From Thermoplasmatota archaeon (GTDB lineage: Archaea; Thermoplasmatota; Poseidoniia; Poseidoniales; Thalassarchaeaceae), in assembly GCA_036124005.1 (NCBI GenBank), contig JAZADD010000012.1, positions 1-53,306 on the forward strand: 53,306 bases of DNA. Reading direction: 5' to 3'. A model generated the notes under the pieces. That model was given only the letters and a program-made list of their open reading frames with translations, did no database searches and was not told the DNA's origin. Shown piece by piece: positions 3,398 to 47,726 of this stretch. A program made the position numbers and the translations under genes. Each line of letters opens with the position of its first letter. Positions within the stretch are counted from its first letter, which is position 1.

Positions 3398-3727
3398 TCA
3401 GATCCAATATCCAGGCCGACACCATGCGGGAAGTTCCGTGGCGGCTCCTGGGCTAGTGAGGCCGATGAAGAAGACCATGACGATGATGAAGAATGCAGGG
3501 AAGAGAGCAGTCATTGTTAGAATCTTAGAATCTGCATCACCATAGAGGTGCATGAAAATCGCTGCAATCATGATGAATTTCGGAATGGCAATTCCGACAA
3601 GAATACTCATCGTGATAGTATCGCCCAATTCTACACCGACAGCAGCCACTTCAATTGCAGTGAGTATCATCAAGCCCCAGAAATTCATCCAGTAGGGATC
3701 TTTTCCGAAAATTGTGTAGTGTGCCAT
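3398..3727 (-). CDS. coxD: Cytochrome c oxidase subunit IV family protein
   Basis: Three hydrophobic helices with LTAIEV, KFIMIAAIFMHL; last gene of the cox operon. GAGGTGA SD overlaps the coxC stop; alternative start 3736. Confidence 0.85.
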   Translation of the reverse strand: MAHYTIFGKDPYWMNFWGLMILTAIEVAAVGVELGDTITMSILVGIAIPKFIMIAAIFMHLYGDADSKILTMTALFPAFFIIVMVFFIGLTSPGAATELPAWCRPGYWI

Positions 3728-3740
3728 ATTTTTCATCACC

Positions 3741-4892
3741 TCAGAACAGATAGAAGAATGGGAAGACGAGCACCCATACCAGATCAACGAAGTGCCAGTA
3801 TAGTCCGAAGTATTCAATTGAAACAGCATTCTTTGGACCATAGCCTCCACGAAGTCCCTTGAAAGTCATGTATGCAAGTCCAATCATCCCCGCGAGAACG
3901 TGGACTCCGTGAGTACCCGTAGTTACGAAGAAGGTCGAAGCACCTACTCGAATATCTGCCATCATTACACCACCCGGGTGTGTTCCTGCAGCCATCATCA
4001 AACCAAGTTCACTATCTTCTGGAATATCTGCGTATTTTGATCCAGTATCGAATGCTTTGTGCTGATATGTGTCTGCATTAATCGTGTAACCCTCAGCGTA
4101 AAGAGAAGCGATTTCGGAGTACCCGTGGTTTAACTCTGTAAGTGGTCCTGGAGTTGGGAAACCAATGAACCATTCAATCATCTTCAGTGTTAGGAAGAGT
4201 GTTGCTAGGAACAAGGTCGCGCCTAGGAACATAGCTACTTTGCGACTTCGATGTGTCTGAACACTTTCCATGTCAACTTCATACTTCTCTGCATACTTTT
4301 TGTCACTCATCTTGGCAGTCTTGAGTGCTAGAACAATGGTGAATGATGAGATAATTAGAGCAAACGTGTTCACTGCTCCTGGTGCGAGATGGAACCAACT
4401 ACTTGCAATTAGGTGTGCTGCGGGCTCAAAGCAGACTACAGATGTACCTTCGATCCATTCTCCAGAGAGGAAGACCTCCTTGCAGTTTGGTATGCCTAGA
4501 CGATAGCGGATATAGGTGCTGAAAAGACTTGTGAAAACCATCATCTCAGACATCAAGAAGATCCACATTGATACTTTGCGAATGTCGATATTGCGGAAAG
4601 GAGCTCCAGTTGCCTTTGGCTCGTAAATCCCATCTGCGGACATATCCTGACGCCACCAAACAAGCAGCCCCATTGTGATGATGATAAGGCCCAACATCAC
4701 ACCACTGAGTGCGCCCAGATCAGCGACCTCTCCACCTACGAAGACATTGGCGAATCCGTATAGGAACATGGCGAATCCTGCACTCATGATCAGTGGTGCA
4801 AACGAGTTGTGCGGTGCACCATGGCTCCAATCATGAGGGCCCCACGGAGAAGCATGGTGGTCATGGTGGTCATGTCCGTAATCTGCGCTCAA
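3741..4892 (-). CDS. coxC: Heme-copper oxidase subunit III
   Basis: WIFLMSEMMVF, TGTHGVHV and GLYWHFVDLVW motifs. Probable TTG start at 4892 after GGAGGTGA, overlapping the coxA stop. Confidence 0.93.
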   Translation of the reverse strand: MSADYGHDHHDHHASPWGPHDWSHGAPHNSFAPLIMSAGFAMFLYGFANVFVGGEVADLGALSGVMLGLIIITMGLLVWWRQDMSADGIYEPKATGAPFRNIDIRKVSMWIFLMSEMMVFTSLFSTYIRYRLGIPNCKEVFLSGEWIEGTSVVCFEPAAHLIASSWFHLAPGAVNTFALIISSFTIVLALKTAKMSDKKYAEKYEVDMESVQTHRSRKVAMFLGATLFLATLFLTLKMIEWFIGFPTPGPLTELNHGYSEIASLYAEGYTINADTYQHKAFDTGSKYADIPEDSELGLMMAAGTHPGGVMMADIRVGASTFFVTTGTHGVHVLAGMIGLAYMTFKGLRGGYGPKNAVSIEYFGLYWHFVDLVWVLVFPFFYLF

Positions 4893-7216
4893 TGGCTCAC
4901 CTCCGAGTCGTCTTCCGGCATCATTAGGCTCTCGAACCATTGTCCGAGACGTGATGGTTCAGATGCAATATGCTCGTTTGCATCTCGAAGAACTGGTGGG
5001 TTATGCGGGTCGAATGAAGGTGTAGGAGGTGGTGAGGCACACATCCATTCAAAGGACCACCCACCCCATGGGTCAGCTGGTGCCTTTTTACCAGAAACCA
5101 CCGTTTTGATCATGTTACCAACAAGAATGAGGTTTGAGAAGAAGAAGAGGAATGCACAAACGCTGATGAACAGATTCCAATCTGCCATTTCTGCAGGGAT
5201 ATTTGCGTAATCATCTGTTGTGATGAACCAAGTGTGATGTCGTCGAGCCATTCCGAGTACCCCAAGTTTGTGCATCGGCCAAAAGATACCATTGAACGAG
5301 ATGAAAGCAGTAAGGAAGTGAAGTAGCCCCCATCTTTCATCCATCATTCGTCCAGACATCTTAGGGAACCAATAGTATACTCCACAAAAGACGCCGAATA
5401 CGGTTCCGCCTACGAATACGTAATGGAAGTGTGCAACGACGAAATATGTCTCATGTAGATGAGTATCCATCGCCATTGAAGGGAAGAACATCCCCGAGAT
5501 TCCACCTAGGGTGAACGTTACGAGGAATCCGAGTGCCCAGAGTGTATGGGTTCGATAGACAAGGGATCCTTTGTGCATCGTCTTGAGCCAGTTGAATATC
5601 TTGATTCCAGTTGGCACAGCGACAAGCATTGTTGTGAGCATCGTCACGAAACGGAGAGTGGGAGACATTCCGGAGGTAAACATGTGGTGACCATATACGA
5701 TGAAAGCAACAATTCCGATACCTGCCATTGCATAGACCATTGATCGATATCCAAAGACAGAGCGTCGGGCTGAGGTAGCAAGAACTTCGGAAATTACACC
5801 GAAAGCAGGAACAATTACCACGTACACTTCAGGGTGGCCGAAGTACCAGAATAGGTGACTCCACAGGAGTGGGTCGCCACCGGATGCTACATGATAGAAT
5901 GCGGTGCCGATGGTTCGATCTAGATAGACCTGAATCAGTCCGACACCCCAAGCAGGAATAGATAGGAAAAGCATCAGATTAGCTATGAAAATAGACCATG
6001 TGAATAACGGCATTTGCATCCAACCCATACCCGGCGCTCTCATACCACAAATCGTGGCTAGGAAATTGATTCCAGTTAGTGTGGAAGACGCTACGAGCAT
6101 AATCTGTCCAGCTGCCCACAGTGTAGTTCCGGTATGTGCGGTTTCAGAGACGATGTAGGGTGCATATCCAGTCCATCCTACATCTGCAGCCTGTCCACTG
6201 AATACACCAGTGAAGATTAGTATGGCTGCGAATGGCTGTAGCCAGAAGGACATTGCGTTAATACGGGGGAGGGCGAGATCATGGGCTCCAATCTGTAGAG
6301 GAATAAGCCAATTAGCGAACCCGTTAATCAACGGCATCGCTGCTAGGAAAATCATAGTCGTCCCATGCATTGTGAAGAACATATTGTATTGATCTTGAGT
6401 GAGGAAATCATTACCTGGAACAGCAAGCTGAATTCGTATTAACAGTGCCATGATGCCCCCCACGCCTAGGAAGAAGAATCCAGCTAGGAAGTAGAGGGTT
6501 CCAATTTTCTTGTGGTCCGTGGATGTAAGCCATTCAACAATCCATGGTGCGAAACTCTCCCAGTTGAAACCGTCCGGACTGACACGATAGAATGTGTAGA
6601 GTATGACAGTAGCAAGTAGTATTCCGGATACGATAATGAGTGTAACTAATACTACGAATGGATCGGCAGATTGGAGTTCCTCAACGGCTGCACCTGTGGA
6701 CGGGCCTTGAACAGTCATCGACATCAAGTTCCACTTATCATCGGCACTTGCTCCTCCATCACCATTGACCGAATTGGTTGCGAGCGTGAATGTTGTAGAA
6801 CCACTTGCAGGAGAGGTCCAATCAACAGTCCATGAGGTCTGATCATTTCCTAGTTCAGTATGTCCGGCCTCGTTGCTACCCCAAATCTGCACATCGTCAC
6901 CAATGTTGGCGAGAGTTCCCGAATCCACTGCGAGGTTGAATCCTCCAAGGTTTTCAGGTGCAGCACTAGTGCCCGACGGCCCTCCAGTGAATGAAATAGT
7001 GAGTGTGTAGGTAGTACTTGCATTGAAACTTGCAGGCAACCCTTCAATTGATGGAGTGACGCCAGCATCAGGAACTGCTCCATGGCATGTACAGCCCTTT
7101 TCACTGAAGCCATTGATTCCAGTTGGTAAGGAATCAGCCTGGGGTGCCATACTGAGAGCTAAGCCGAGAACAGTCAGAAGAACGAGGGTTCGGATGAGGC
7201 CTTTCTGTTGCATCAT
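4889..7216 (-). CDS. coxA: Cytochrome c oxidase subunit I (A1 type) with fused N-terminal extracellular domain
   Basis: TDHKKIG (D-channel), TMHG, FGHPEVY, GHHMF, TGIKIF (K-channel), AHFHY; about 220 extra N-terminal aa. Confidence 0.96.
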   Translation of the reverse strand: MMQQKGLIRTLVLLTVLGLALSMAPQADSLPTGINGFSEKGCTCHGAVPDAGVTPSIEGLPASFNASTTYTLTISFTGGPSGTSAAPENLGGFNLAVDSGTLANIGDDVQIWGSNEAGHTELGNDQTSWTVDWTSPASGSTTFTLATNSVNGDGGASADDKWNLMSMTVQGPSTGAAVEELQSADPFVVLVTLIIVSGILLATVILYTFYRVSPDGFNWESFAPWIVEWLTSTDHKKIGTLYFLAGFFFLGVGGIMALLIRIQLAVPGNDFLTQDQYNMFFTMHGTTMIFLAAMPLINGFANWLIPLQIGAHDLALPRINAMSFWLQPFAAILIFTGVFSGQAADVGWTGYAPYIVSETAHTGTTLWAAGQIMLVASSTLTGINFLATICGMRAPGMGWMQMPLFTWSIFIANLMLFLSIPAWGVGLIQVYLDRTIGTAFYHVASGGDPLLWSHLFWYFGHPEVYVVIVPAFGVISEVLATSARRSVFGYRSMVYAMAGIGIVAFIVYGHHMFTSGMSPTLRFVTMLTTMLVAVPTGIKIFNWLKTMHKGSLVYRTHTLWALGFLVTFTLGGISGMFFPSMAMDTHLHETYFVVAHFHYVFVGGTVFGVFCGVYYWFPKMSGRMMDERWGLLHFLTAFISFNGIFWPMHKLGVLGMARRHHTWFITTDDYANIPAEMADWNLFISVCAFLFFFSNLILVGNMIKTVVSGKKAPADPWGGWSFEWMCASPPPTPSFDPHNPPVLRDANEHIASEPSRLGQWFESLMMPEDDSEVSH

Positions 7217-7229
7217 AATTCATCACCCC

Positions 7230-7958
7230 TTACTTGTGAACATTCACCACAGCAGCCATGTATGCGTGATCATCACCACAGTATTCTGTGCATAGAAGCA
7301 GAGTTGATTCACCTTCAACTCCACCACAATCTGCATCTTCACAGGTCGGAATAATCCATACTTGAGTATCAAGTCCTGGGACCGCATCTTCCTTCACACC
7401 GAATTCCACGAACCAAGGCGCATGGGTTACATCCATTGAAGTAAGATTTGCAAGGTAGAATTCACCTTCTTTTAGAGATAAAACAGGAACCATTGTCCCA
7501 TTCAAATCTTGATATTCAGATGCATCACAAAGTGAAGGACCTAGTTCACGACAATCGAAGGACCAGAACCATTGTTGGGCAGTGATATCGATAGTGTGGT
7601 AGCATTTGTTTGGATCGGCATCTACATTTGTGCAATCGAGACCATATTGACTGTCGGGGTCTGTAGGATCTGCCCAAACGTCAGATAGTGGACCCCATGA
7701 AATCCAAGTCAGGTAGACGATGAGTATGAATGGAATAATCGTCCAAGCCAATTCAAGAGAGATGTTGTCGTTGTGTTTTGGGAAGACACCTACTTCGATT
7801 CCATCGACATCTACCCAATCGTCGTTTTCATCCTTTGAGCGATAGGTCAGTGAGTGGTGTGCTAGCCAAATAAACGTGAAACCGCCAACTATTGCGGACC
7901 ACACTAAGTATTCGTTCCACAGACTGTCGAATGCGGCGCTCGCGATGCCCACTCCCAA
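7230..7958 (-). CDS. coxB: Cytochrome c oxidase subunit II (CuA)
   Basis: Two TM helices, ELAWT, QWFW, DVTH and CuA motif CTEYCGDDHAYM. Confidence 0.93.
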   Translation of the reverse strand: MGVGIASAAFDSLWNEYLVWSAIVGGFTFIWLAHHSLTYRSKDENDDWVDVDGIEVGVFPKHNDNISLELAWTIIPFILIVYLTWISWGPLSDVWADPTDPDSQYGLDCTNVDADPNKCYHTIDITAQQWFWSFDCRELGPSLCDASEYQDLNGTMVPVLSLKEGEFYLANLTSMDVTHAPWFVEFGVKEDAVPGLDTQVWIIPTCEDADCGGVEGESTLLLCTEYCGDDHAYMAAVVNVHK

Positions 7959-8693: not shown

Positions 8694-11561
8694 TTATTCT
8701 TCGATTAAGACCACGATTGGGATGGCTATACTTGCTTGCATAGATTGTCTAATCCTGTCGATTTCCTCGATACGTTCGTTCAATTGTTCATGTAGTCTGT
8801 TGATTATGCCTCGTTTCATTCGTAACCACCGTATATCGACGATTTCATCTCTAATTGTAGCATTCCACTCAGCCTTCTGGATTTGTACTTCTTCAGCTTC
8901 TATTCTTGATTTCCATGCTGCATTGGTGTTAATTGTCAACTCATTCAACAATGGAGCTAATCGATTTCTTTCATGGAATAGTAGTTCTCCATGGAGGCGA
9001 GTCCGGGCTTCTTCTAAGTGTTGAATTAGGGAACGTTCTCCCTTGATTACTTTAGGTATTTCATCAGTATCCATCCATGGATTATGGTCGAGTGTAATAA
9101 TCGGATTAAACTCAGCATCTAGAGCAAGCCAGCGACGAATCCGATGATCATTCAGTCCATGGACCCGCCACTCAATTGCTATGACATATGCTGTTTCGAT
9201 AGGTAGTAAGTCAGTAGATTTCATACTAAGTATTTCAGAAATAACAACGTCTTCACCAAATTCTCTGATTGGTCCTTCGACAGAGATGCGCATCAGAGGA
9301 TGCCAAGGATTCACAAATTCGAGATCTGTTCGTTTACGAGCGATATCTTGACTGTATGTAATTTCAAGCCATTGTGGCCCAGCGCGTTGACTAAGTCGGG
9401 CAACGAGTTCCTTCCAAATTGTCGATCCATATTCGGATGAATCCAATTTCTCTAAGCATTCGTCGGACAGACGAATCATCCAGACGTCATCAGTTGTTTC
9501 ATAGTGTTCGCCTCCATTCGTAATCACCCACCTTTCGACCTGTCGTCGTACATCCTCTGGTTCAACATCCACTCTATGAGTTTCCATCGCGGAGCGCACA
9601 CGTCGTACCCCTGGATCGGCTCCAATGATTTCTCGTTCTTTGAGTGCAGATTCTGTAATCCATCGGTTACGTTCCCGAAGTATTTCTTCAACATCTTCGT
9701 CGTTTTCAATCTCAAGGTAATGGTCAAGATCCATGAATTTGAAACCCGGTTCAACATCTTCTCGGATAGCATTCTGTGCAATTTCGTTTTGAGCGAGGAC
9801 ACGAACAGCTCGACCTAGCATTGGATCTACCATTCCAAGAGATGTTTCGAAAATTTGTATACGAAAGAGTAAGCGTCCAAGGATTGCAGCATCGATTGTA
9901 CCTTGAACACACATATTTGCGATGTTAATCACGGGACTTCTTTGCCCATAACGATCCAATCTACCAATCCGTTGTTCCAATTTCATTGGATTCCAAGGAA
10001 GATCGTAGTTAACGAGTCTGTGGCAGTGTTGTTGGTCAAGTCCCTCGGTGCCAACTTCGCTGCTTAGTAGTACATCCATTTCACCCTGAGCGAATCGTTC
10101 GCGAATCTCATCTCGCTTTGCAAGTGGTGTTTTTCCTGTTAGTAACTCCGCTCTGAGGCCATCATCGTTCAACTTTTTCAGAAGGTGTTCAAGAGTACCA
10201 TGGAACTGAGAGAACAACAGGACTCCTCCATCGCCACCATCTGCCATCTCCTGTTGGAGCCAGCCGATTAGTGCCTCATACTTCGTATCTCGATGTCCAA
10301 GTGTTTCTGCAGCCCGTACCAATTCTTGATGTTCAGGTAAACACCTCCATGCATCGATTATTCGAGCATCCGCCTCTTCATCGTCGGGAGGATTTTCTAA
10401 TGCCTCCTCTATTTTACCAAGGACATGAGATGCATAGGCAGGTAAACACGATGATGCCATCCTCTCAGGCATAATTGATGCCCAATCAAAACTACCATCT
10501 GGATCTTTCAAACGCTGTAGGCGATACGACCAGGCTCGAGCCGCCTTGTACAGTGTCCATTCCTCCTCTGTTAGATTCACATGAAGTATGACAGGGACTC
10601 GTTGAGCGAGATTCATATCGAGATCCTTACGTCTTGTTCGAACGAGCATATCATTCAGAGGCAACATTTCTCTCAACAAGTCTACAAGTTCGCGCTGTGA
10701 TTCCGATGAGAGATGTTCACCTTCAGTTGCTAGAGTTCGGACATCTCTCAATCGGGGGTCGCCCTGCATTGCGACGTAATTGCTTAGTCGAACAATCTCA
10801 TTTCTGAGACGATTACCTTGAATCGGCTTTGTACACGCGGCATCGATAGCACTGTGTATTGTTGCAGTAGGGGCCATTGTAGATCGAAAGGAATGGATAT
10901 CAGGCCATCGATCTGGGGCGATGAGAGAGAGTAGAACAAAGAGATCCTCATTATCGAGATTAACCGGTGTTGCCGTTAGAAGCATCTTCCAGCGTGATGA
11001 GAGGAAGAGCATCTGGATTGCATCATGTAGTCTTGATTTTGGATTTCTAACATGGTGGGCTTCATCTACAATGGTCATTAGGAGATTCATCCTTTGTCCT
11101 ACCATCGCATCAAGAGTCTCGGCTCGTCGGAGAACTCCGTGACTAACAATTACCACGTTGTTAGAACCATTTTGCAGAGCATCTATTTCTTCAAGAAATG
11201 CGGCGCAGGTCGAAGGTGTCTTTGCCTCAAGATCAACTCGATGAGCGAGTTCATTTTTCCATTTTGATCGTAAGCTTCCTGGACAGGCAATGAGAATACC
11301 GCCTTTTTCACCTCTAGCATGAAGCTCACGAATCGAGATCATTGCCGAAATTGTCTTTCCGAGACCTACTTCATCAGCGACTAGAATCCCTCTCCAAGGT
11401 CCTGCGAACATACGAGCGACTGGTAGATGTTGATGAGGCTGATCTTCCCATCGGCCAAAATGGAGAGTCATGTTTTGATCCGAAGCTGGCTGTCTAATTT
11501 TGAGATCTGATTCGATAGCCGACCAGGTCCTTTGTTCAGACAATGGATTTTGCAATGTCAT
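8694..11561 (-). CDS. SNF2/RapA-like SF2 helicase
   Basis: ADEVGLGKT, VDEAHH, LTATP, EGLD, YDLPWNP, QRIGRLDRYGQ; C-terminal coiled coil. Confidence 0.92.
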   Translation of the reverse strand: MTLQNPLSEQRTWSAIESDLKIRQPASDQNMTLHFGRWEDQPHQHLPVARMFAGPWRGILVADEVGLGKTISAMISIRELHARGEKGGILIACPGSLRSKWKNELAHRVDLEAKTPSTCAAFLEEIDALQNGSNNVVIVSHGVLRRAETLDAMVGQRMNLLMTIVDEAHHVRNPKSRLHDAIQMLFLSSRWKMLLTATPVNLDNEDLFVLLSLIAPDRWPDIHSFRSTMAPTATIHSAIDAACTKPIQGNRLRNEIVRLSNYVAMQGDPRLRDVRTLATEGEHLSSESQRELVDLLREMLPLNDMLVRTRRKDLDMNLAQRVPVILHVNLTEEEWTLYKAARAWSYRLQRLKDPDGSFDWASIMPERMASSCLPAYASHVLGKIEEALENPPDDEEADARIIDAWRCLPEHQELVRAAETLGHRDTKYEALIGWLQQEMADGGDGGVLLFSQFHGTLEHLLKKLNDDGLRAELLTGKTPLAKRDEIRERFAQGEMDVLLSSEVGTEGLDQQHCHRLVNYDLPWNPMKLEQRIGRLDRYGQRSPVINIANMCVQGTIDAAILGRLLFRIQIFETSLGMVDPMLGRAVRVLAQNEIAQNAIREDVEPGFKFMDLDHYLEIENDEDVEEILRERNRWITESALKEREIIGADPGVRRVRSAMETHRVDVEPEDVRRQVERWVITNGGEHYETTDDVWMIRLSDECLEKLDSSEYGSTIWKELVARLSQRAGPQWLEITYSQDIARKRTDLEFVNPWHPLMRISVEGPIREFGEDVVISEILSMKSTDLLPIETAYVIAIEWRVHGLNDHRIRRWLALDAEFNPIITLDHNPWMDTDEIPKVIKGERSLIQHLEEARTRLHGELLFHERNRLAPLLNELTINTNAAWKSRIEAEEVQIQKAEWNATIRDEIVDIRWLRMKRGIINRLHEQLNERIEEIDRIRQSMQASIAIPIVVLIEE

Positions 11562-18120: not shown

Positions 18121-19173
18121 TTACTCTTCTAGGGATGCACTTTGGGCCCGATGATAGATTTCTCTCAAAGTCTGGTCACTGATGTCTAGATAGATTCGTG
18201 TAGTTTGGATGTTGGAATGTCCAAGAAGTCGCTGGATAGACACAAGATCCACACCTCGTTCAAGGAGGCCGGTTGCGAAGTTGTGCCTTAGCGTATGGGG
18301 CGTTAGGCGCGATCTCGGAATGAGAGCATCATCAGCAATGGCATCCATCATCTTTTGGACATAGCGAGTGCTAATTCGTGCAACTCGATTTGTTAGGAAA
18401 ACGGCATCTACGTCGTCGTTAGGGGGATTCTTTCGTTGGACTAAAAGTCGCCGAGTTCCAAACCAAGCTTCCATTGCTTCTACTGAGCGCTCAGTGAATA
18501 GGACGGTACGGTCTTTGTTGCCTTTACCTCCATAGACTCTTGCAGAACGATCAGCCAAATCCATGGCTCCAATCTCAAGAGCACATAATTCGGAGACTCT
18601 CATTCCAGTATCAAGTAGCAGTGTGATGATGGGATGGGCAAGTGGATTCTCAGAATCTTGAGCCGTTCTGCGAACACGCATTACCTCATCCCTCGTGAGA
18701 GTCCTTGGTAGAGGTCGAGATGCGGCGGGGCGATGTACCCAGTCAGGGATTCGGTGCCCGATATAACGGAACAGATGACTCAATGCAGCAATCCGTGCGT
18801 TGATTGTTGCAGGTCTTAGATTAGCGATGGCTTGGATGAATAGGTCTAGTCGACCATTGTTCGGATTGCATCGATTATGCATTTCTGAGATTGAGATTTC
18901 CTCGATATCGATGTCCTCTTCTCCTGGAAGAATAGTGGCCGAGAATCGCCGTGCTGTAGATAAGTATGAACGAATTGTGTGATTACTTTTCTTCTCCGTT
19001 CTTAGTTGAGTTTCCCATAGTGGAAGACAAGCAAGATGCTGGATTCGAACTAGACGTGCAGGGAGGACTTGGTTATTGCCTGTGACAGATAAATCGAAGG
19101 GAGTAGCGATGCGGCCCGCTGGACTATCTGCAGCCCATCCGCTCCGCTGTCGTTGGTCGTCCATGGGTCCCAT
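18121..19173 (-). CDS. xerA: Tyrosine recombinase, XerA-like
   Basis: GMRVSEL, GKGNKDR, PHTLRH, LGHS and TRIY: full catalytic set. Confidence 0.88.
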   Translation of the reverse strand: MGPMDDQRQRSGWAADSPAGRIATPFDLSVTGNNQVLPARLVRIQHLACLPLWETQLRTEKKSNHTIRSYLSTARRFSATILPGEEDIDIEEISISEMHNRCNPNNGRLDLFIQAIANLRPATINARIAALSHLFRYIGHRIPDWVHRPAASRPLPRTLTRDEVMRVRRTAQDSENPLAHPIITLLLDTGMRVSELCALEIGAMDLADRSARVYGGKGNKDRTVLFTERSVEAMEAWFGTRRLLVQRKNPPNDDVDAVFLTNRVARISTRYVQKMMDAIADDALIPRSRLTPHTLRHNFATGLLERGVDLVSIQRLLGHSNIQTTRIYLDISDQTLREIYHRAQSASLEE

Positions 19174-35937: not shown

Positions 35938-38900
35938 ATGGACCCCACACGCGGGAAGGCATCTGCGCTTTCTCTCGTGGCCCTCATGGTGATGATGAGT
36001 CTAGGCCCAATGGCCTCAGTTGTCTCTGCTGGTGATGTTCCTTGGACGGGTCCAGGAAGTATGCTATTGGATGATGCAACCGTTGAAGGGTTTAGCATTG
36101 AGACTAATGGAACAGTAACCAATGCATGGGTTACAGTAGATTCGGATGGGAGTGATATCTTCACCGTTCCTAGTTGGGAGAGTGACGTTCCTGGCCGAAA
36201 TTTCTCTCATGGTTCGCATCATAATGCATCATCTTCGTTATTCACCGGAGATCTAAGTCTATCGAACGCTGACAATCATGGTAGAATTCACGACTTTGAG
36301 AACCTTCATCGCCGCTTCGAGGCTTGGGTTCCTGGTGGAACAACCAGTGTTTGGGAAATCACTGATGTATCTACTCTAAATGGAACTGTAGTCAACATCA
36401 ACAATTCTGTCGGGCAGTCAATGACTGCACGGACCAATGGAGGAGGTCATGCCCCAAGATTCGCTTCAGACGGTACATTTGTTGCCATGACTCAACCGAA
36501 TCTCGGTATCAGTCCAGGTACACATTCGTGGTTAACCGGTCCGGACTGGACACTTCCAGCACATGTGGAGAATCTAACTTTCACAATGGACCACTGGTTC
36601 CATCTTTGGACTGATTCTGATGAGGCTGGGGCCGGAGCAGGAGCTTGGGTAGAGGTTTCTTTTGATGGTGGTTCTAATTGGTCTTGGATTGAACCTGAGC
36701 AGGGTTATGGGAACACAGTATCGACCTCTGCCCCGATTCCAAATGGAGCGAACGGCTCTGGATTCCCAGCATGGGCTTCTATTAATGCGAGTGGTTGGGT
36801 TCGTTCCTCTTTCGTTTTAGATGAACATCCGGACATTGTCAATGCAAGCACGTTTCGTTTCCGACTTGTGGTGTGGACGCCGATTACACAGTCCATCGAT
36901 CGACCTGGATGGTTCGTAGATCGCCTTCAGGTGAGTAACGACGGCTATGCACCAGGGGCATGGTTCCATGGCAACTTGAACGGGGAATATGCTGCTGATG
37001 CAAATGCTGCTTTGGTCATGGAAGCAGACCTCTCTTCTGTCAATGGCCCCATTGTTCTCCAGTATGCTGCAGATTTTGACATGGAAGGGGACATTTACGA
37101 CAATTGGCATGTTGAGATGAGTACAGATGGAATCAATTGGACAGGCATAACTCCACTGATTGGACTTCCTGGACACGGCGTCTATGTGAATGGAACTACT
37201 ATCATCGATGATTCGAACGGTTGGGTATCACTTCAGCATGCGATTCCGAATGGATATAACACAACGGTATCGATACGCTTCCGCTTCCAATCTGATCCAA
37301 CTGGAGGCACTGGTTTTGGTGGCTTGACAATCGACCCTCCAGAAGGACTCATGTTGGATGATGTCAGAATTGTCGAGATTTCCGGTCAGACGGAAATTGA
37401 ACATGCAGTATGGAGGTTTAACGACACCTCAACTGCAAATCATTCCTCTGTTGTTCTTGGTAAGGTGAACCAGTGGAGACATATCTCAAATCAAGGGATG
37501 AATGGTCCGTGGGCAGAGACTGAATCCTTTGAGGATGCAAAATTGTTGCCGATAGATTGGAACATTAGGACCGAGGCTGGATATGGTTGGGAATTTGGTG
37601 AACTGAATAGTACTGGACCAGACCCTACATCATTCCCTGGTGGCGGTAATGGAGCTGGTATTCTGTTGAATGCGGCCTATCGACAGAATTCGTATTCTCA
37701 TTTAGAATCACCATCAATTCCTATCCCTTACGGGAGTCGAGCAACTCTACGATTTGATCACTTCATTTGTGCTGAGAGCGGTTGGGATGGTGGTGCGCTC
37801 TACATCTCGACTGACCATGGACACTCTTGGTCTCATTTCGGGTCCCATATTGTCGATTGGTATGATTCAATGCAGTACAACAACACCCTCAGTCCATTTT
37901 ATGGACAGATGGCTTGGGATGGCTCTCGAGTCAAAGGTGGTGGTTGTGGAACTAACACTAGTTTTGTTACCAAAACAGCAGATATGAGCCATTTAGCAGG
38001 CCAGAGTGTGATGCTCCGATTCACATTTTTTTCAGATACCTACTTTGAATCCAGTGGGTGGTATGTGGATAACGTCGGCATTACAGTAGATGTGTTCCGA
38101 GAGAATGGTACGTGGACCTCACCATTGATTCAAGCCCCTGATTCCTTAGGATGGGGGTCAGTTGATGTTCTAGGAAGCGTGCCGAATAGAACATCTGTCA
38201 AGGCATCTATACTTGATTCACAGGGCATACCGATTCTCGGAATGGAGAATCGGTCCCTTCCAGTTCATCTTGCTGATCTTTACGGATTGACATCTTTCAA
38301 CTCGAGTTTAGGCATTCATGTCCGAATTGAAATGGAGACGATGGATGAGCACCGGACACCACGTATCGAACAGGTGGCGATTAACGGCAGCCGCTTCCTT
38401 ACAGGTCAAGCTGCATCTGCAACAGGATGGGATGTAAGCCCTCCTTTGATTGTGCATGAAGTGGAGGGGAGGATTGAGAATCCGACTTTCATGACACATC
38501 GCGTTGAGGGTCCAACTATCGTTTCTGAGCGTCGCATCGAATCTTTCTATCTTGAATCAATTTCTGCAGGAGTAATGATCGAGGTCTTTGCAGACGGAAT
38601 TTCCGTACACTCTTCGATGATTAATAATGGCACAGTTTCCCTCTTCAGGCCTGCCACCACTCTTGCATTTGTGTTAGATTTCCAACCGGGTTCGGATTTA
38701 GAGCAATTGATAGTATATCCTCATCTTACGACCCCTTCTTTCGGTCCTGAGATTGATGTTCTGTCTGATGGTTTTGTTGAGTGGTCTTGGCCCGCTGATG
38801 ATTCAGATAATGCTCTTCCATATGGATTGACACAGGGATCGAGTCTGGAATCAAACGCATCGTCGATTAATGGTACAATTCGCATGAGTTTAGTCGATAA

Positions 38901-41900
38901 TGCTGATTGGCGTTCAGCGACTATGATGATGCGCGCTCATACCGGTACTGATGTTACGATGACGGTAAATCTCGGTCAACGATCATGGTCGAGGACTATG
39001 TCGGCTGGTGATTTCTCCATGATTAGTATGAGCGGCGCTGAACTCCGTCAGGGTCAATCATCTTCCGTTGGACAATTGGTACTCGGCCCCTCTCATCAAA
39101 TGCCGCTTCGAGATGTTGTTTTTCAGATTACAGCGGATCAGGAGTTTACGGGTTCAGTAACCTTGCTTAGAGTGGATCAGCACATAATCTCAAACATATC
39201 CAATCTCGGCCCTTCAATAGAGAATTACCGTCTCGCAGAAATAGCTAATGCAGCATCTTCAGGGTCTAATCTTTCCTCCAAGCTGCCTATTCCAGTTCAA
39301 ATCGCACAAGAAGGTGGTGGAGGACTGATTCTCGATGGCCATGTAATACAGAGTCCTCTCATGACTGATGAAATCCTCCTTCATCCTACTACAATTGTTC
39401 CAGAGGTATCCTTTGATGTCGTGACTGAGCATCACCACCTTTTCGATGTAGATGAAATCGATAGAATCCATCTTGAATTGGAGATTAGTGGAATTTCATC
39501 TCGACCATCCTTCGTTCTTGATCCGTTGAATATAGAATCGGTTCAAACAATCGAGTCTTCAGGATTCACGATTTCCACTCCTATAGTGGAGCATCGCCCT
39601 TTCAGCTACCGTATTACTTGGCCCTTGACTATGGATTGGAGTATTGATGATGCGGAGTGGGTCAGAATTCATGCGAAAGCCTTCGATTCATTGAACCGGA
39701 CTTGGGGGCCTGATGTAGCGACCATAGGTCTTGGTGGATTGAATGGAATTGAAAACGATATGGAAATAGTTGGCTTAACTGCTGTTGACTCACTTGATCG
39801 TAGCCTCATGGATTCAGGTGTATACGGATATCCTCTTCATCTCAGTCCTCTCTCACCAATAGAGGTGAGCGGATTGGTAAGGTTTGAGGGCATAGTAGGA
39901 GATATTCCCGAATCTTCTGCTGCGGTGGCTGTAACGATTGAGATGGAGGATTATAATTGGTCTTTCCCGGCAGGTCCTGTCGAGACTGATGGTTCATGGT
40001 CTGCGATTATCTCTATTCCTGATGTTGAGGGTGGATCATCTGAATCTGTTTGGAATATCAGCGCTCGTATGACACGGGTAGGCCCGGCTCAAGAGATTCG
40101 CAACCAAGCTTTGGATAACACGCTAATAGATCGCCCGGGCCAGTTCCGGATTGATCGAGGTGCACCTTTGATTGGGCGCCTTCTTGCTGATATTAGTGGT
40201 ATACAACGTCCTCTCGACCAAGACATTTGGTCGTTATCACGTCCTTTGGTGATGAGTGTAGAGGTTGACGAGGATGAATCACTTTCCCGTACAATCCAAA
40301 TCCATTCATGGATTGAGAATACTAACGATCTAGATGGAGATGGAATCCCTCAACCCGATGAATACAATTCTCGTCCTATTGCCGTTCCATTCAATGCTCA
40401 TGAAATCGGACGAATTGATCTTGGTATTTTGGATATAACTATGGGTGCCGATGGAGCAATTGTATCCGTCTATTTGACAGGATTGGATGCCTCTGGACGC
40501 TCGTTCATCGGGGGAGGTAGCCCTGGTCTCCACGCTGATCTTGCAACCTTTACACTCGCTGAAGATCGGCCGACTCGTATAGAAAGAAACGAGATATCCA
40601 TGGATCATATCGAGGGTTCCCTCTTACATGCCTCAACTCATACGGTGAGCCTTGTAGTAGAGGATGAGAACGGCTTCACATCTATTGACGAGATTCATTT
40701 TTGGCTATCTGGAGCAGGTGAAGAAGCCGGCCATTTGCTATATCGTCCCCTCCTTGGAGAATTGTTAGCACCTGCAAGCAGCACTCTCATACCGATGGGT
40801 AGTGAGTTCATACCAAGCGATTCTTCGGGGAATCGTGGATTGTTGAATCTCAGTTTTGCTATTGGAGAAAATGCTCCGTTTGACTGGACTTTGTCCAGCA
40901 GTGTGCCTAGTATCACAGTAATTGAGGATGAACAGACTCTAGATTTAGGTCTCCTAACTCTTGCTGATCTTACTTGGATCTTAGATCAGCGAACATCTTG
41001 GCAGGTAATCGAAGTTCAAGATCTAACTGCTCCATTCGGTCGCATCAATTCCGGCGTTATACACGCATGGGATGGAGATGCTCTATTGTGTCGACTTCAG
41101 ATGGTACATGAGCGTAATGGAGCTCCACTTTCGGCTCCACCTGTGGGCCGCAATGTCTTGGTAGACCCACATTTTGATGATAATCTTGAGACAACCCCTG
41201 GAGTCACTGTTAATGGTACAGTCGATGAGAATGGCATTGTCGAATTCGTCGTCGTTCTTCCTCAGATGGAAATCGATTCTGAAGGCGTAATTCGTATTCG
41301 TTTGGACTCTACGGGGCAAATTGCATGGGGTAGCCATGACATCGACGTTGTTGTCGATCGCACAGCCCCTCGAATTGAATTCCTTCAGACCAGTTTGGCT
41401 GCAGTCCAGACAAATGGTCTCAAAACACAACAGGTATCCTTCTCTATTCTTGATGAAGGAGGGGTTGCTGAGGAGGAGATTGATTTACATTGGACTTTCA
41501 GGCGATTTGGAGTTGATTTACCCGGTTCCGTGGGTTACGAATCGATTGGTCCGGTTCAGCGACAAGGCCCGGTCTATGGTGTATCTGAATCCGTTGATAT
41601 TTCCACAATTGATCCAGCGAATCTTGAGGATGGGGACCAATTAGTAGTCTGGTTGACGTTTACAGATCTTGCTGGCAATCCTGTAGAAGGTATTGGAAGC
41701 CAGTACGAGCCACGGGCACCTGTTCTCAGAGTGGTTTGGTTTGATCCTAAGATTGAACCCATTTCCGTTAATCCTCAGCCTGCACATCTCAACCGTTTTG
41801 TAGATGTCAATCTATGGATTCGTGATACTGGAAATGAAGGTGGATCAGTCGAAGTAACTCTCTTGGCTTGGAAGCAAGATGGTCCAATTGAACGATGGAT

Positions 41901-42303
41901 TGAGCAGAATCGAACTACGATTGAATTGATGCCTGGAGGTTCTGTTCGTGAATCTTTTGAGGTGGAAACATGGGCAGTTGGTCAAATGCTCTTACTTGCA
42001 GTCCTTGATGGTGACATCGAGAATGGAACTATGATTCCAGCCATCGAGGTGGTGGACCCCGATTCTCAACGTGGCTTTTTTGATTCTGTTGTTGAAGGAG
42101 ATTTGAATTCAATTGGCTTACTTGTGATAGTGTTCACAGGCTTTGGTTTCCTTATTGGTATAGTTGTGCAAAGAAATCCTGCTGCAGAGGATTGGGATGA
42201 CGATGATGAAGATGACATACCGTTACCAGAAACCCCACCGGCTCGACCTAAATCTTGGCCGGCGCCTCCAAATCGATTTCCAGACGATGATGATGAGGAA
42301 TAA
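35938..42303 (+). CDS. Giant membrane-anchored extracellular protein (repeated jelly-roll/Asp-box modules, Ig-like stalk)
   Basis: 2121 aa; signal peptide; SFDGGSNW, STDGINW, STDHGHSW motifs; C-terminal TM plus acidic/Pro-rich tail. Confidence 0.85.
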   Translation: MDPTRGKASALSLVALMVMMSLGPMASVVSAGDVPWTGPGSMLLDDATVEGFSIETNGTVTNAWVTVDSDGSDIFTVPSWESDVPGRNFSHGSHHNASSSLFTGDLSLSNADNHGRIHDFENLHRRFEAWVPGGTTSVWEITDVSTLNGTVVNINNSVGQSMTARTNGGGHAPRFASDGTFVAMTQPNLGISPGTHSWLTGPDWTLPAHVENLTFTMDHWFHLWTDSDEAGAGAGAWVEVSFDGGSNWSWIEPEQGYGNTVSTSAPIPNGANGSGFPAWASINASGWVRSSFVLDEHPDIVNASTFRFRLVVWTPITQSIDRPGWFVDRLQVSNDGYAPGAWFHGNLNGEYAADANAALVMEADLSSVNGPIVLQYAADFDMEGDIYDNWHVEMSTDGINWTGITPLIGLPGHGVYVNGTTIIDDSNGWVSLQHAIPNGYNTTVSIRFRFQSDPTGGTGFGGLTIDPPEGLMLDDVRIVEISGQTEIEHAVWRFNDTSTANHSSVVLGKVNQWRHISNQGMNGPWAETESFEDAKLLPIDWNIRTEAGYGWEFGELNSTGPDPTSFPGGGNGAGILLNAAYRQNSYSHLESPSIPIPYGSRATLRFDHFICAESGWDGGALYISTDHGHSWSHFGSHIVDWYDSMQYNNTLSPFYGQMAWDGSRVKGGGCGTNTSFVTKTADMSHLAGQSVMLRFTFFSDTYFESSGWYVDNVGITVDVFRENGTWTSPLIQAPDSLGWGSVDVLGSVPNRTSVKASILDSQGIPILGMENRSLPVHLADLYGLTSFNSSLGIHVRIEMETMDEHRTPRIEQVAINGSRFLTGQAASATGWDVSPPLIVHEVEGRIENPTFMTHRVEGPTIVSERRIESFYLESISAGVMIEVFADGISVHSSMINNGTVSLFRPATTLAFVLDFQPGSDLEQLIVYPHLTTPSFGPEIDVLSDGFVEWSWPADDSDNALPYGLTQGSSLESNASSINGTIRMSLVDNADWRSATMMMRAHTGTDVTMTVNLGQRSWSRTMSAGDFSMISMSGAELRQGQSSSVGQLVLGPSHQMPLRDVVFQITADQEFTGSVTLLRVDQHIISNISNLGPSIENYRLAEIANAASSGSNLSSKLPIPVQIAQEGGGGLILDGHVIQSPLMTDEILLHPTTIVPEVSFDVVTEHHHLFDVDEIDRIHLELEISGISSRPSFVLDPLNIESVQTIESSGFTISTPIVEHRPFSYRITWPLTMDWSIDDAEWVRIHAKAFDSLNRTWGPDVATIGLGGLNGIENDMEIVGLTAVDSLDRSLMDSGVYGYPLHLSPLSPIEVSGLVRFEGIVGDIPESSAAVAVTIEMEDYNWSFPAGPVETDGSWSAIISIPDVEGGSSESVWNISARMTRVGPAQEIRNQALDNTLIDRPGQFRIDRGAPLIGRLLADISGIQRPLDQDIWSLSRPLVMSVEVDEDESLSRTIQIHSWIENTNDLDGDGIPQPDEYNSRPIAVPFNAHEIGRIDLGILDITMGADGAIVSVYLTGLDASGRSFIGGGSPGLHADLATFTLAEDRPTRIERNEISMDHIEGSLLHASTHTVSLVVEDENGFTSIDEIHFWLSGAGEEAGHLLYRPLLGELLAPASSTLIPMGSEFIPSDSSGNRGLLNLSFAIGENAPFDWTLSSSVPSITVIEDEQTLDLGLLTLADLTWILDQRTSWQVIEVQDLTAPFGRINSGVIHAWDGDALLCRLQMVHERNGAPLSAPPVGRNVLVDPHFDDNLETTPGVTVNGTVDENGIVEFVVVLPQMEIDSEGVIRIRLDSTGQIAWGSHDIDVVVDRTAPRIEFLQTSLAAVQTNGLKTQQVSFSILDEGGVAEEEIDLHWTFRRFGVDLPGSVGYESIGPVQRQGPVYGVSESVDISTIDPANLEDGDQLVVWLTFTDLAGNPVEGIGSQYEPRAPVLRVVWFDPKIEPISVNPQPAHLNRFVDVNLWIRDTGNEGGSVEVTLLAWKQDGPIERWIEQNRTTIELMPGGSVRESFEVETWAVGQMLLLAVLDGDIENGTMIPAIEVVDPDSQRGFFDSVVEGDLNSIGLLVIVFTGFGFLIGIVVQRNPAAEDWDDDDEDDIPLPETPPARPKSWPAPPNRFPDDDDEE

Positions 42304-44620: not shown

Positions 44621-47600
44621 TCATAGTGCCTCATCGCTGAACTCGGCCCCTCGAAGGCTGACGAATACGCCAACTCCTCCAATCGCAAGAAGTGCAATTA
44701 TTGCAATCATCACGAGAATACCAGTTTGAATAGTCCATCCACCCACTATTTCTGAATCTGTATCAGAGAGGGTAACCGAGAAGATGCGGTCATCACCAGG
44801 TGTAGGCTCAAGGAAGTTGTCAATTCCTCGGATTTCGATATCCATTGTTCCTATGGGCATAGTGGAACGTGTCATCACTGCGACACTGTAATTCCCATCA
44901 CCTGCCACTAGATCTCCGTTGGTTCCATCATCGACAAGTCGAGTCCAATCGTCGCCTTCTCCAATAGCTGCTAAGGTACCGAGACGTGCTTGGACCGCTG
45001 AAATACCATCGGGGTCTGTGACGTGAATGGAGATAATGTGTTCAATCGAATCCTCTCCAACATCAGGTACGAGAAGGGCATCTACGGCTTTAGCATCTCG
45101 AAGGATCACTAAATCATTGAGAGCTGGCCCCTCATTTAGAATAGTGAACTGGGGCGCGGTTTCACTGCCCCCTGAAAACCCTGTAATGAAATCGGTTATT
45201 CGACTTGCACCTTCTTCATCGACGAGAGTAAATGTCAATCGATTGAGTCCAGGAGACATCCCTGGTGGAACTACAATAGAACCCGACCATTTTCCATTAG
45301 CGCCTTGTACTAAATTGGTCAAATTTCCACCTTTGCTTTGCAAATCAATTGATACGGATGCAACACCATGGAGATCCTCGGCTTCAATTGTGACGTCCAT
45401 TGAATCGCCTCTTCGGACTACTTGTGGTTCATACTCCACGCTTTTCAGACGTGGAGCAAAATTGTCAATCGTGACATTATCTTGATCGACAATTGTAGAC
45501 CATCCATCCGAGATAGTTACGTTCAGATTGAATTCGCCATATTCTATTCCAAGATGTTGGATATGTGCTGTCCATATGTCGTCATGGACTGTGTCATCAC
45601 CGTCTGATCCGATGTCGTTTAACACCACGGTTCCGAGGCCAATTGAAGATAAATCAACCTGGACTGATTTAACGTTCCAATCAGGGTCTGATACGACGAC
45701 TTCGATATGAGCTTCTCCACCTTCAGCGTTCAACCTACCTTCTTGGAAGCGAACCTCTTCTAGAGTCGGTGGTGTATTCTCTGCTTCAGTAACTATAGAT
45801 GGAGCGAGAATCCGTTCAAGTGCTTGTGTTTCTGTGAATGTGAGGTTTGTTTCTTCAAGTTCAATTTCAACTTGTCTTGTTACATTAGCGATAAGTCCGG
45901 CTAGGATACCTTCGTTGATGATACTCCCTGTAGCAATCCCACCTTCTTCGAAAGTACCGTTCCAGATTGTTACAGGGAGTACATGTCCATCGAGGTTAAC
46001 GGTCGAGACAGACACTGCTTCTACATGCAGAACTAAGGTGTCGCCTGTATCAAGAGTTAATGCGTCACCAGGTACTAGAGTCGCCGGTGCGTATCCAAGT
46101 TCCCGACTGATGTTAACACTCCCTAAAATGGACTCGTTGGAAGGTTCGGGTAAGTCCTGAGGGATAGGACTGCGTTCTGGATACTCATTGTTGACTTGCC
46201 CCCCGTCTTCGACGTATCGATATCGCACAGTTCTGTTTCGCCAGTGTTCCTCAGGAACTTGATAATCGAAGGTGAGATTATGTTCAGCCTCGATATCAAG
46301 ATTTGATCCAATACCTGTAACTTGGGTGATGTTCAGCCATGATTCGCTTCGAATAACGTTCACATCGAAGGTTTCACCAGTTGCATTTTGTTGAGGTCCT
46401 TGTTCGACTATTTCGACAATTAGGCCAATCCTTCCGTCGATATCTCCGCTGATATCTCCATCCATATGGATTGTGTTTACGGTTGTCAAACCGTTCTGAG
46501 ATTCAAGCCAGAATACAGGCACTGTTCCGTTCACGACGATGGTTGCTCCATCTTCAGATTCAGCAAAGTCGAAACTCCCATCTCCTTTGATTCTTGAGAG
46601 TTGTTCGATTTGTTCTCCATCCTCCCATCGTTCGACAAGAATGAATTCATCGAGATCAATTTGGAATCGATCGTTGTTATCGATAAGGAGCATTTCTGCG
46701 AATGCTTCGAGTCTGTAATTCGAGTTTGTGACTTGCCCATCTACGGTTTCAAGTTCGAAGAGGAAGACTGCTACCTCTCCAGTGATATTGATTGATTCCC
46801 CATCGTTAGCTCCGTTTGAGTTTAGATTCCCACTGCCCTCAATTCGAACGGTTTCTGATGGGATTCCGTTAGCGATAGTTCGTACTATGTAGGAATCCCT
46901 AACATCGATATGTGCGACGGTCTCAGAACCTATTTCATCGACTAGGATGAAGGTTGTCGAGCCGTTACCATGCATCTCAAAGGTTTGCTCGTTGAGTACA
47001 GTATCAGTCATTGTCTCATTCAACCAGACACGGCTGAGTTCGAGCTCAGTTTCAGTTCGAGTATCACCGTCATCGGTGATAATGGTAATATTCCCTGAAC
47101 CGAGTTCATTAGCGGTCAGAAGGTTACCGTCACGTTGTTGCCAACCTTGTCCAACAAAATCGAGATAATATTCTTCGTTAGATACGCCGTTTTGTTCAAG
47201 ACTCCAAGAAGTTGCACGTGTTATTTCGTGATCTGCAGTTGGTTGATTCCAATAGGTGACTTCTATGGCCCTTGAACACAATGTTGTGCGTTGTTCTAGT
47301 GGAGTTAGGTTCGATTCTGCTCCAATTACATCGATTAGGATTGTCTCGGATAGATTCACGCCGGTGGGTAGCACAATGCGGTGTTCACTTAGGTTCAGAT
47401 CAATTGTGGAATTATCCTGATGAATAACATTCGTAGAATTTTCGTGAGACCATTTAATTTCAGCCCATTGGATATCGATAGATGTTGAACCGTCGAATAC
47501 AATTCGGTAGGCGTGCTCGAAGGAGACACCATCACTCCAATCAACAAATACAGTGCAGGGGTTTTCAGCACTCGCATCCTCAGCGGAGAGTAGCGTTTGT

Positions 47601-47656: not shown

Positions 47657-47726
47657 GGTTTGGATTCCTCTCCGGTCCGTATTCAATCCATTGGGGGTAT
47701 GATCCTAATGATGGACGTGATGACGC

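Follow-up and report, generated by a model that had tools for sequence, protein, structure and literature searches.

Why should subunit I of a cytochrome oxidase begin with a signal peptide and a GCTCHG motif? This question is raised by a gene in a 53,306-nt stretch of DNA (the window: positions 1 to 53,306 of the forward strand of contig JAZADD010000012.1, GenBank assembly GCA_036124005.1) from a Thermoplasmatota archaeon of the family Thalassarchaeaceae, order Poseidoniales. The gene lies at 4889..7216 on the minus strand as a single open frame of 775 aa, and encodes subunit I of a heme-copper oxidase (CoxI) with an additional domain in front of it. We propose, as a fairly probable answer, that the N-terminal 180 residues of this CoxI are an exported, membrane-tethered, cytochrome f-like β-sandwich cytochrome of the c type, which serves as the electron entry of the oxidase. 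An oxidase with a built-in cytochrome is a known kind of enzyme; what is new here is the place at the N-terminus of subunit I, the extra helix, the fold and the motif. The domain belongs to the choice_anch_V/Reeler family, a family without assigned function. No description of the CoxI fusion, or of the family as a cytochrome, was found in the literature searched, with most subscription journals outside its scope.

The fused gene and its conservation

The 775-aa protein consists, in this order, of a signal peptide, a β-sandwich domain with the GCTCHG motif, an extra transmembrane helix and a whole A-type CoxI. The first-pass annotation of the window had placed the first three elements ahead of the canonical CoxI start motif WLTSTDHK (aa 229–236) in one frame, at 6550–7216 (aa 1–222 of the fused protein), and it was correct in all details. 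The predicted Sec signal peptide occupies aa 1–29 (7130..7216, on the minus strand like all features of this operon) as judged by hydropathy, with a hydrophobic stretch at aa 5–25, and is predicted to be cleaved after A-D-S, ahead of L30; a conserved (A/V/L)-x-(S/A) precedes x-P-x-G-I in 20/24 fused orthologues caught by the search pattern. The predicted mature N-terminal arm, as translated, reads LPTGINGFSEKGCTCH (aa 30–45, 7082..7129) and ends with the CTCH codons (7082..7093) for C42, C44 and H45, at which heme c is proposed to be attached with the His as its proximal ligand. The Gly/Ser/Thr-rich domain that follows the arm contains the segments GGFNL, GHT, WTSP and NSVNGDG, and includes the near-invariant H119 (6860..6862), a candidate for the sixth (distal) heme ligand. 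The extra transmembrane helix, also assigned by hydropathy, spans aa 181–213 (6578..6676).

The canonical CoxI core is made up of aa 229–775 (4889..6532). Pfam PF00115 (COX1) matches aa 237–690 over profile positions 1–436 of 436 with an E value of 2.9e-139, and this match spans the full 12-helix core, which makes the protein a member of the A-type CoxI; against TIGR02891 the core scores 620.6 bits, under the equivalog cut-off of 670.75. CoxI helix 1 (aa 238–268 by hydropathy) lies downstream of the extra helix. The N-terminus of CoxI is normally on the cytoplasmic side. Given this, a cleaved signal peptide, a domain outside the cell and one extra helix add up to a consistent topology, in which the extra helix is predicted to bring the chain back to the cytoplasmic side ahead of CoxI helix 1.

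The CoxI fusion is real and old. Among 101 database proteins matching aa 1–225, 75 contain the CoxI start motif, and CxCH is found within the first 130 aa in 73 of these 75; of the other two, P0003 is a mis-started or truncated call and P0065 has a different N-terminus. The source names among these matches are Poseidoniales, Thalassarchaeaceae and Euryarchaeota metagenome-assembled genomes, in agreement with the Marine Group II origin guessed in the first-pass annotation. Within the order, matches to the fusion occur in 119 of the 121 sampled genomes and in 21/21 genera, the listed best matches beginning at query residues 2–19 save for a few that are cut by contig ends or split in two, and several genomes possess a second fused paralogue of ~40% identity. 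Beyond the order, fused forms are present in a genome of the same class (G146) and in a genome of another family of the phylum (G171), the latter encoding two fused CoxI; no fused form was found in G136 and G179, both outside the order. The residues of the domain that are invariant in 24 fused orthologues include G41, C42, C44, H45, G91, G92, F93 and H119, together with G123, N124, D125, W129, W133, D160 and W162.

At the DNA level, a 1294-nt contig assembled from a run of another study covers 5900–7118 with 4 differences and thus crosses the junction between the domain and CoxI. Near-identical DNA is present in 18 DNA runs, and the total for DNA and RNA is 20 runs from 12 studies; contigs from metatranscriptome libraries lie at 6494–6655 and 6749–6913, an RNA-library origin that does not prove transcription. 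When the window was first annotated, the fusion was feared to be an assembly artefact or a peculiarity of one genome. Both fears can be put aside, since the fusion is kept across the order and an independent contig bridges the junction.

The domain family and its C-x-C-H motif

The NCBIfam profile NF041895 (choice_anch_V) matches aa 22–165 (6722..7153) over profile positions 4–147 of 150 with 82 bits and an E value of 4.4e-23, the curated cut-off being 42 bits. This region is predicted to be a β-sandwich, with a pLDDT of 91.8 for the AF2 model. The source genome (G000, 80% complete) encodes six choice_anch_V domains, every one of them with CxCH soon after the signal peptide. A full scan of 1.84 billion representatives gave 689 representative clusters at E values up to 0.001. 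Most of the best 150 clusters are 200–230 aa long and consist of a signal peptide, the domain and a C-terminal anchor; a search with the domain alone for proteins of near its length returned 13 matches, mainly fragments. Large surface proteins of G000 also open with the CxCH domain (C73:8449-11088, C28:3325-5934 and C28:1-1713, of 879, 869 and 571 aa) and continue with arrays of acidic Asp-rich (DxDxDG-like) or PKD-like repeats; if the domain binds heme, they would be cytochrome-tipped surface fibres.

The domain is a prokaryotic branch of the Reeler superfamily. It is placed there because PF02014 (Reeler) is matched by 43 of 125 relatives (best E value 3.1e-7), the family profile matches the F-spondin reeler domain at an E value of 0.008, and the best Foldseek matches of the domain are F-spondin reeler domains (E value 2e-6). 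The label given on first annotation, Reeler/choice-of-anchor V-like, was therefore well chosen. The window protein itself has no PF02014 match at E values up to 1, so that its relation to the superfamily runs through the relatives, the profile and the fold; a single-domain sequence search of the PDB gave chance-level matches only. An Atlas look-up led to bacterial clusters (Bacteroidota, Ignavibacteriota) with Reeler and Por_Secre_tail domains. With the Reeler domains of F-spondin, the reelin N-terminus, insect reeler proteins and ferric-chelate reductase 1, the window domain thus shares a superfamily in both sequence and fold. However, the matched eukaryotic domains align only past the CxCH arm and lack a His at the position of H119, the aligned residue in the F-spondin reeler domain being a different one. 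To our knowledge, no heme is known for Reeler domains.

What, then, is the arm for? The motif column was examined in an alignment of 149 sequences, comprising the query and the 148 best family representatives. CxCH is present in 130/149, CxxCH in 4/149, Cx4CH in 6/149 and Cx5-8CH in 4/149 (P0211, P0215, P0227 and P0242); one sequence (P0219; 1/149) has a single Cys as xxCH, and 4/149 (P0153, P0154, P0239 and P0206) are truncated or motif-less. At one aligned column, the spacing between the two Cys is therefore 1, 2, 4, 5, 6 or 8 residues, with CH constant. A fixed CH with a floating second Cys points to a heme c attachment site rather than to metal chelation or a disulfide, and this column is, among the features read from the sequences, the strongest single result in favour of heme c. 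C42, C44 and H45 are invariant in the 24 fused orthologues and conserved at 90% or more in 125 family members; the same is true of H119, which also reaches at least 90% in alignment A5. A distal His had been anticipated by the first-pass annotation, and H119 is indeed near-invariant; ligation by two His and ligation by the N-terminal amino group, which was not considered there, are equally conceivable.

The CTCH motif (aa 42–45) lies in the exported part, after the predicted Sec signal peptide, as would be appropriate for a CXnCH site of a c-type cytochrome. The window signal peptide has no twin-arginine motif, and RR-like motifs occur in 1/24 fused and 1/25 paralogous signals. Such Sec-type signals are expected if the cofactor is received outside the cell. 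That a contracted motif can hold heme is known from Kuenenia stuttgartiensis: CKCH in its tetraheme cytochrome (Ferousi et al. 2019) is described in PMC7096707 as a proven functional covalent heme site. The two cases have a C-x-C-H heme site in common, the heme of the Kuenenia protein being bound and that of the window domain proposed. The Kuenenia site serves one heme of a multiheme α-helical bacterial protein, whereas the choice_anch_V family would be a monoheme β-sandwich with CxCH as its majority form, presumably matured by an archaeal cytochrome c maturation (Ccm) system.

The organism does possess machinery for attaching heme. G000 has genes for a CcmF-like protein, for CcmC beside a CcmA/B-like ABC protein, and for CcmE, and PF01578 is found in 121/121 genomes of the order. 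As to other clients of this system, the class-I cytochrome c families PF00034 and PF13442 were each found in 0/41 genomes of the order, and the inspected CxxCH open reading frames (ORFs) of G000 are thioredoxin-like, zinc-ribbon-like or have the motif in a cytoplasmic tail. In the single-contig relative G027, CxCH is present in 5/5 family ORFs. Its CxxCH ORFs of at least 80 aa number 19, and the 5 of these with hydrophobic N-termini gave no cytochrome Pfam match. In a phylum sample of 151 genomes, PF01578 is present in 61 of the 65 domain-positive genomes and in 25 of the 86 domain-negative ones, and by our reading in all genomes with strong domain matches (E values below 1e-15). Taken together with the motif, these findings make a c-type cytochrome the most likely identity of the domain.

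CxxCH-like active sites (CSNCH, CGGCH, CQGCH) also occur in exported thioredoxin-like proteins of G000 (C32:6531-7598 and C93:13232-13849) and G027 (715316-716782 and 158781-159452). The G000 copy on C32, with CSNCH, is fused to a membrane domain that reads as CcdA-like from its sequence and has no Pfam match. Rather than cytochromes, these proteins probably form the thiol-reducing branch of the cytochrome c maturation pathway.

Respiratory gene contexts and the resemblance to cytochrome f

The domain has a paralogue at another point of the respiratory chain. In G000, a CxCH protein (288–301 aa in this genome, within a range of 268–323 aa) heads the Rieske/cytochrome b operon. Behind it come genes for a small membrane protein, for the Rieske protein and cytochrome b, and for a fusion of cytochrome b-C, 4Fe-4S and CCG domains. 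Its layout is a signal peptide, the CxCH domain and a C-terminal transmembrane helix; place and topology are those of cytochrome c1 or cytochrome f. Across 30 genomes of the order, the paralogue lies just upstream of the Rieske/cytochrome b genes in 29/30 loci, and the one miss among the 30 Rieske loci is cut by a contig end. For Marine Group II (MGII), a published account describes cytochrome b and Rieske proteins and no canonical bc1 complex (PMC6336850).

The last gene of this operon in G000 (locus L011, 7969..10797, plus strand, on C88) encodes a 942-aa multi-part protein. Its N-terminus is a membrane part that stands, by our reading, at the place of the C-terminal half of cytochrome b (subunit IV), where no Pfam match was obtained; the rest comprises a long middle region, one more transmembrane segment, a 4Fe-4S dicluster domain and a pair of CCG (HdrD/GlpC-like) domains. 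It is unusual for a quinol-oxidising complex to be wired to an HdrD-like module in the cytoplasm, and this may be the 'MGII-specific complex III' of earlier authors.

G146 adds a second connection between the domain and the oxidase. On the same contig as its fused coxI, this genome has a second, compact cox operon (locus L198 on C44, 2153..5740, minus strand) with coxIII (240 aa), coxII (248 aa) and an unfused coxI (503 aa), after which a stand-alone gene for a 204-aa CICH domain protein with a C-terminal anchor follows with a 4-bp overlap. The domain being fused in one cox operon and separate in another ties it to the respiratory chain. In the tree, a 100/100 split separates the complex III paralogues from the CoxI-fused copies, and the stand-alone copy is placed with the latter. 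A further component of the chain may be a blue copper protein of G000 (locus L046, 1297..1860, minus strand, on C14), which is 187 aa long with a signal peptide, an acidic linker, a C-terminal transmembrane anchor and the type-1 copper motif C-x2-H-x4-M; it may act as a shuttle from complex III to the oxidase.

Cytochrome f is a β-sandwich with heme on C21, C24 and H25, its N-terminal amino group as the sixth ligand and a C-terminal anchor. How closely does the domain resemble it? Models were compared with 48,161 PDB representatives by VIA-align, and the best 50 rows were viewed for each model. For the CoxI domain, cytochrome f takes ranks 2–3 at Z 9.5 (134 aligned residues) and Z 9.3 (139 aligned), tied with cohesin. 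The cytochrome f rows are the longest alignments of this model and run from model residue 8, the predicted mature N-terminus, so that they cover the CxCH arm; the other rows start mostly at residues 24–32, past the arm, and the few that start earlier (reeler at 13; others at 1, 5, 12, 15 and 18) align fewer residues. For the complex III paralogue (AF2 model with a pLDDT of 85.5), cytochrome f takes ranks 1–2 at Z 10.4 (150 aligned) and Z 10.2 (152 aligned). The next match has Z 8.3, which leaves cytochrome f about 2 units above the reeler domain and cohesin, and the alignments with cytochrome f begin at residues 34–36, again the predicted mature N-terminus.

The models thus depict a large β-sandwich of the cytochrome f type with the motif on an N-terminal arm. 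As modelled, both have a β-sandwich and, close to the mature N-terminus, a short arm that bears the heme motif; the complex III paralogue further shares the C-terminal transmembrane anchor and a gene beside those of Rieske and cytochrome b. The presumed ligand His stands at mature position 22–31, mostly 23, in the paralogue, compared with 25 in cytochrome f, and at 15–18 in the CoxI-fused form. The differences are nonetheless considerable. The motif is CxCH instead of CxxCH, identity is 12–16%, H119 has no known counterpart in cytochrome f, and only about 150 of the 250 cytochrome f residues align with a domain of ~140 residues. The small domain of cytochrome f is absent, for which reason the window domain is not classed as a cytochrome f. 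In sequence, hhalign of the family against 78 cyanobacterial PetA (cytochrome f) sequences, fetched by a motif pattern, gave a score of 39.8 (Prob 61.6, E value 7.8e-5) over 48 columns, pairing GC-TCH with VCANCH and the strands that come next, whereas hhalign in global mode yielded nothing informative; the cytochrome f Pfam family is absent from the 25 most frequent of the 85 families listed for the relatives. Since the sequence-level link is weak, we claim an architecture that, on the models, is cytochrome f-like, and leave homology open.

The cox operon of the window is arranged in the order coxII-coxI-coxIII-coxIV. Next to the fused gene, coxII (7230..7958, minus strand; PF00116, E value 9.6e-8) encodes 242 aa with the CuA motif C-x-E-x-C-x3-H-x2-M and the segment QQWFWSF, which we take to correspond to the tryptophan region where electrons enter in Paracoccus. 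Across 23 orthologues the CuA residues are invariant, and the QQWFWSF segment is kept. By Pfam, its 242 aa contain only COX2 domains and end with the CuA domain, without a cytochrome c domain. On the other side lie coxIII (3741..4940, minus strand, 399 aa; PF00510, E value 1.4e-12) and a gene for a coxIV-like small membrane protein (3398..3850, minus strand; PF03626, E value 1.5e-10), the true start of which is probably downstream of the listed GTG. CoxIII is unusually long, with a His-rich N-terminus (DYGHDHHDHHASPWGPHDWSHGAPH) and a long insertion, and Pfam COX3 covers just two stretches of it, best at aa 333–398.

Within ~12 kb of the operon, the window encodes a tyrosine recombinase (Phage_integrase, E value 5.5e-38; 18121..19173, minus strand) and a 955-aa SNF2-family helicase (8694..11561, minus strand), and several ORFs near them give no Pfam match; this region may be a mobile or defence-related island. 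Farther away, a 2121-aa ORF (35938..42303, plus strand) has an InhA-like MAM domain as its sole Pfam match, and a 1021-aa ORF (44621..47686, minus strand) has none. Both are probably surface proteins or peptidases typical of MGII.

A proposed electron entry through subunit I and its alternatives

We propose that the fused domain would work as follows. Sec would export it and the signal peptide would be cut before L30, whereupon the archaeal Ccm system would form covalent bonds between heme and both Cys (C42 and C44) of the contracted C-x-C-H, with H45 as the proximal ligand and either H119 or the new N-terminal amino group, in the manner of cytochrome f, as the sixth. The extra helix (aa 181–213) would keep the domain anchored at the outer face, alongside the CuA domain of CoxII, and electrons would pass from heme c to CuA, then to heme a and on to heme a3/CuB. 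The donor would be the paralogous CxCH cytochrome of the Rieske/cytochrome b operon, transferring electrons either directly, in a supercomplex, or through the membrane-anchored blue copper protein. The first-pass annotation had envisaged a heme- or metal-binding module for electron entry or cofactor delivery. From this pair of options, heme c is favoured by the CXnCH spacing, Ccm, the paralogue and the fold as the cofactor that the sequence would predict, and electron entry as the presumable function; copper delivery is disfavoured.

The built-in heme would play the role of the subunit II cytochrome c in the caa3 oxidases of Thermus and Bacillus, which are likewise A-type oxidases with their own tethered c-heme beside CuA and, as proposed here too, no need of a soluble cytochrome c in the final step. 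The cytochrome c of caa3 is, however, located on subunit II and is an α-helical class-I protein with CxxCH, whereas the window domain is a Reeler/choice_anch_V β-sandwich with CxCH on the N-terminus of subunit I with an added transmembrane helix. The 242-aa CoxII of the window has no class-I cytochrome c on its C-terminus, and the enzyme is not a caa3 oxidase in that sense. A second analogy may be drawn with the actinobacterial bcc-aa3 supercomplex, which has no soluble cytochrome c and in which membrane-anchored c-type hemes (the di-heme cytochrome cc QcrC) bridge the Rieske/cytochrome b complex and CuA. The fold and the heme-carrying subunit differ between the two systems, and a supercomplex is only proposed here.

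Several points weigh against an electron-entry cytochrome. The heme and its ligands are deduced from sequence, gene context and modelled fold. The profile similarity to cytochrome f is weak and mostly motif-driven: shuffles that keep the motif (n=45, CANCH intact) reach 33.8 at most and full shuffles (n=45) 20.7, compared with 39.8 for the real alignment, and a Z of ~10 between β-sandwiches can arise without homology. As for maturation, the Ccm of E. coli reportedly handles the CXCH variant poorly, and the organism with the proven CKCH site is said to rely on another maturation system. Two exported G027 proteins (743 and 418 aa) with one CxxCH each could be Ccm clients, and 4 of the 65 domain-positive genomes lack PF01578, namely three with weak matches and G246 (2.6e-11; 78% complete); the co-occurrence with Ccm lends support, but phylogeny and an aerobic lifestyle confound it. 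CuA could also be fed directly by the membrane-anchored blue copper protein, which would make heme entry unnecessary. Finally, the domain also heads the 571-, 869- and 879-aa surface proteins of G000, which have no respiratory partner.

The last two points suit the idea that the domain binds heme c but serves another purpose, such as docking to Rieske/cytochrome b, redox sensing, detoxification of peroxide or NO at the outer face, or extracellular iron reduction, a task that the domain may also have at the tips of the large surface proteins. In the tree, the surface-protein copies group with the CoxI-fused clade and not with the complex III clade, and eukaryotic Reeler domains are found in ferric reductases. 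Even so, we regard this idea as unlikely, given that the link with CoxI is tight and old (119/121 genomes, other families, a separate gene in the cox operon of G146), that the paralogue stands in the complex III operon at 29/30 loci, and that electron entry is the simplest reading of a heme beside CuA. It is somewhat less likely again that the domain is a cofactor-free structural or adhesive Reeler-like sandwich, which would give the oxidase stability or connect it with the surface layer and whose Cys would be structural or bind a stray metal. Its best relatives in sequence and by Foldseek are reeler domains, none of them known to us to bind heme, and choice-of-anchor families typically head surface proteins. 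This leaves unexplained the invariant CH whose distance from the second Cys ranges from 1 to 8, the conserved mature N-terminus and an H119 that is absent from F-spondin, the strict presence in respiratory operons, and a universal Ccm for which no class-I cytochrome c was found in the 41 genomes searched. A C-x-C disulfide is, moreover, strained and rare.

Could the two Cys and H45 hold a metal instead? A built-in copper chaperone similar to Cox11, Sco or PCuAC, passing Cu to CuB or CuA through C42, C44 and H45, would face the side of CuA assembly, and Cox11 is itself an Ig-like β domain with a CFCF copper site and one transmembrane anchor, for which (PF04442) no match was obtained in the 80% complete G000. 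We nevertheless consider it improbable. A chelating site would not bear Cys spacings of 1, 2, 4, 5, 6 and 8 or the loss of one Cys; the paralogue stands in a Rieske/cytochrome b operon, which needs no copper; and at least 3 Sco homologues over the cut-off are already present in G000. The window domain matches a different family, NF041895 and not PF04442, no Cox11, Sco or PCuAC structure is among the best 50 rows of either model, and the copper-binding protein YcnI, in its apo form, appears only at Z 6.4–6.8. Least probable, and scarcely to be expected, is a Rieske-like or other Fe-S cluster on C42, C44, H45 and H119, for which speak the near-invariance of these two Cys and two His and the resemblance of CxCH to Rieske box II, the Rieske protein of G000 having CICH. 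The Cys spacing is too variable for such a cluster and an equivalent of box I is absent; exported Fe-S proteins fold before export, and the signals here are of the Sec type, not Tat. An electron-entry cytochrome of the c type is therefore the explanation that we retain.

What would this mean beyond the window? If it is true, the fused CoxI represents a new wiring of the heme-copper oxidase, with the cytochrome on subunit I, and the contracted CxCH motif would no longer be an isolated curiosity but the norm in a family of 689 representative clusters. It is a realistic possibility that the domain family represents a new class of c-type cytochromes with kinship to cytochrome f. We know of no explanation for the origin of cytochrome f, and its first candidate relatives would then be at hand. 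A still wider reading, which we put forward tentatively and think doubtful, is that the prokaryotic choice_anch_V/Reeler family is a large unrecognised class of β-sandwich c-type cytochromes, the missing kin of cytochrome f, and that it supplies the entire high-potential chain of Poseidoniales and some other Thermoplasmatota. One copy would then be the equivalent of cytochrome c1 or f and another would be fused or adjacent to CoxI, with electrons passing from heme to heme without a soluble cytochrome c; archaeal Ccm would have CxCH as its native and preferred substrate, and the heme-less eukaryotic Reeler domains would be derived. MGII archaea, of which no member has been cultured, rank among the most abundant heterotrophs in the surface ocean. 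If our proposal is true, it identifies the clients of their Ccm system and the missing high-potential carriers of their respiratory chain.

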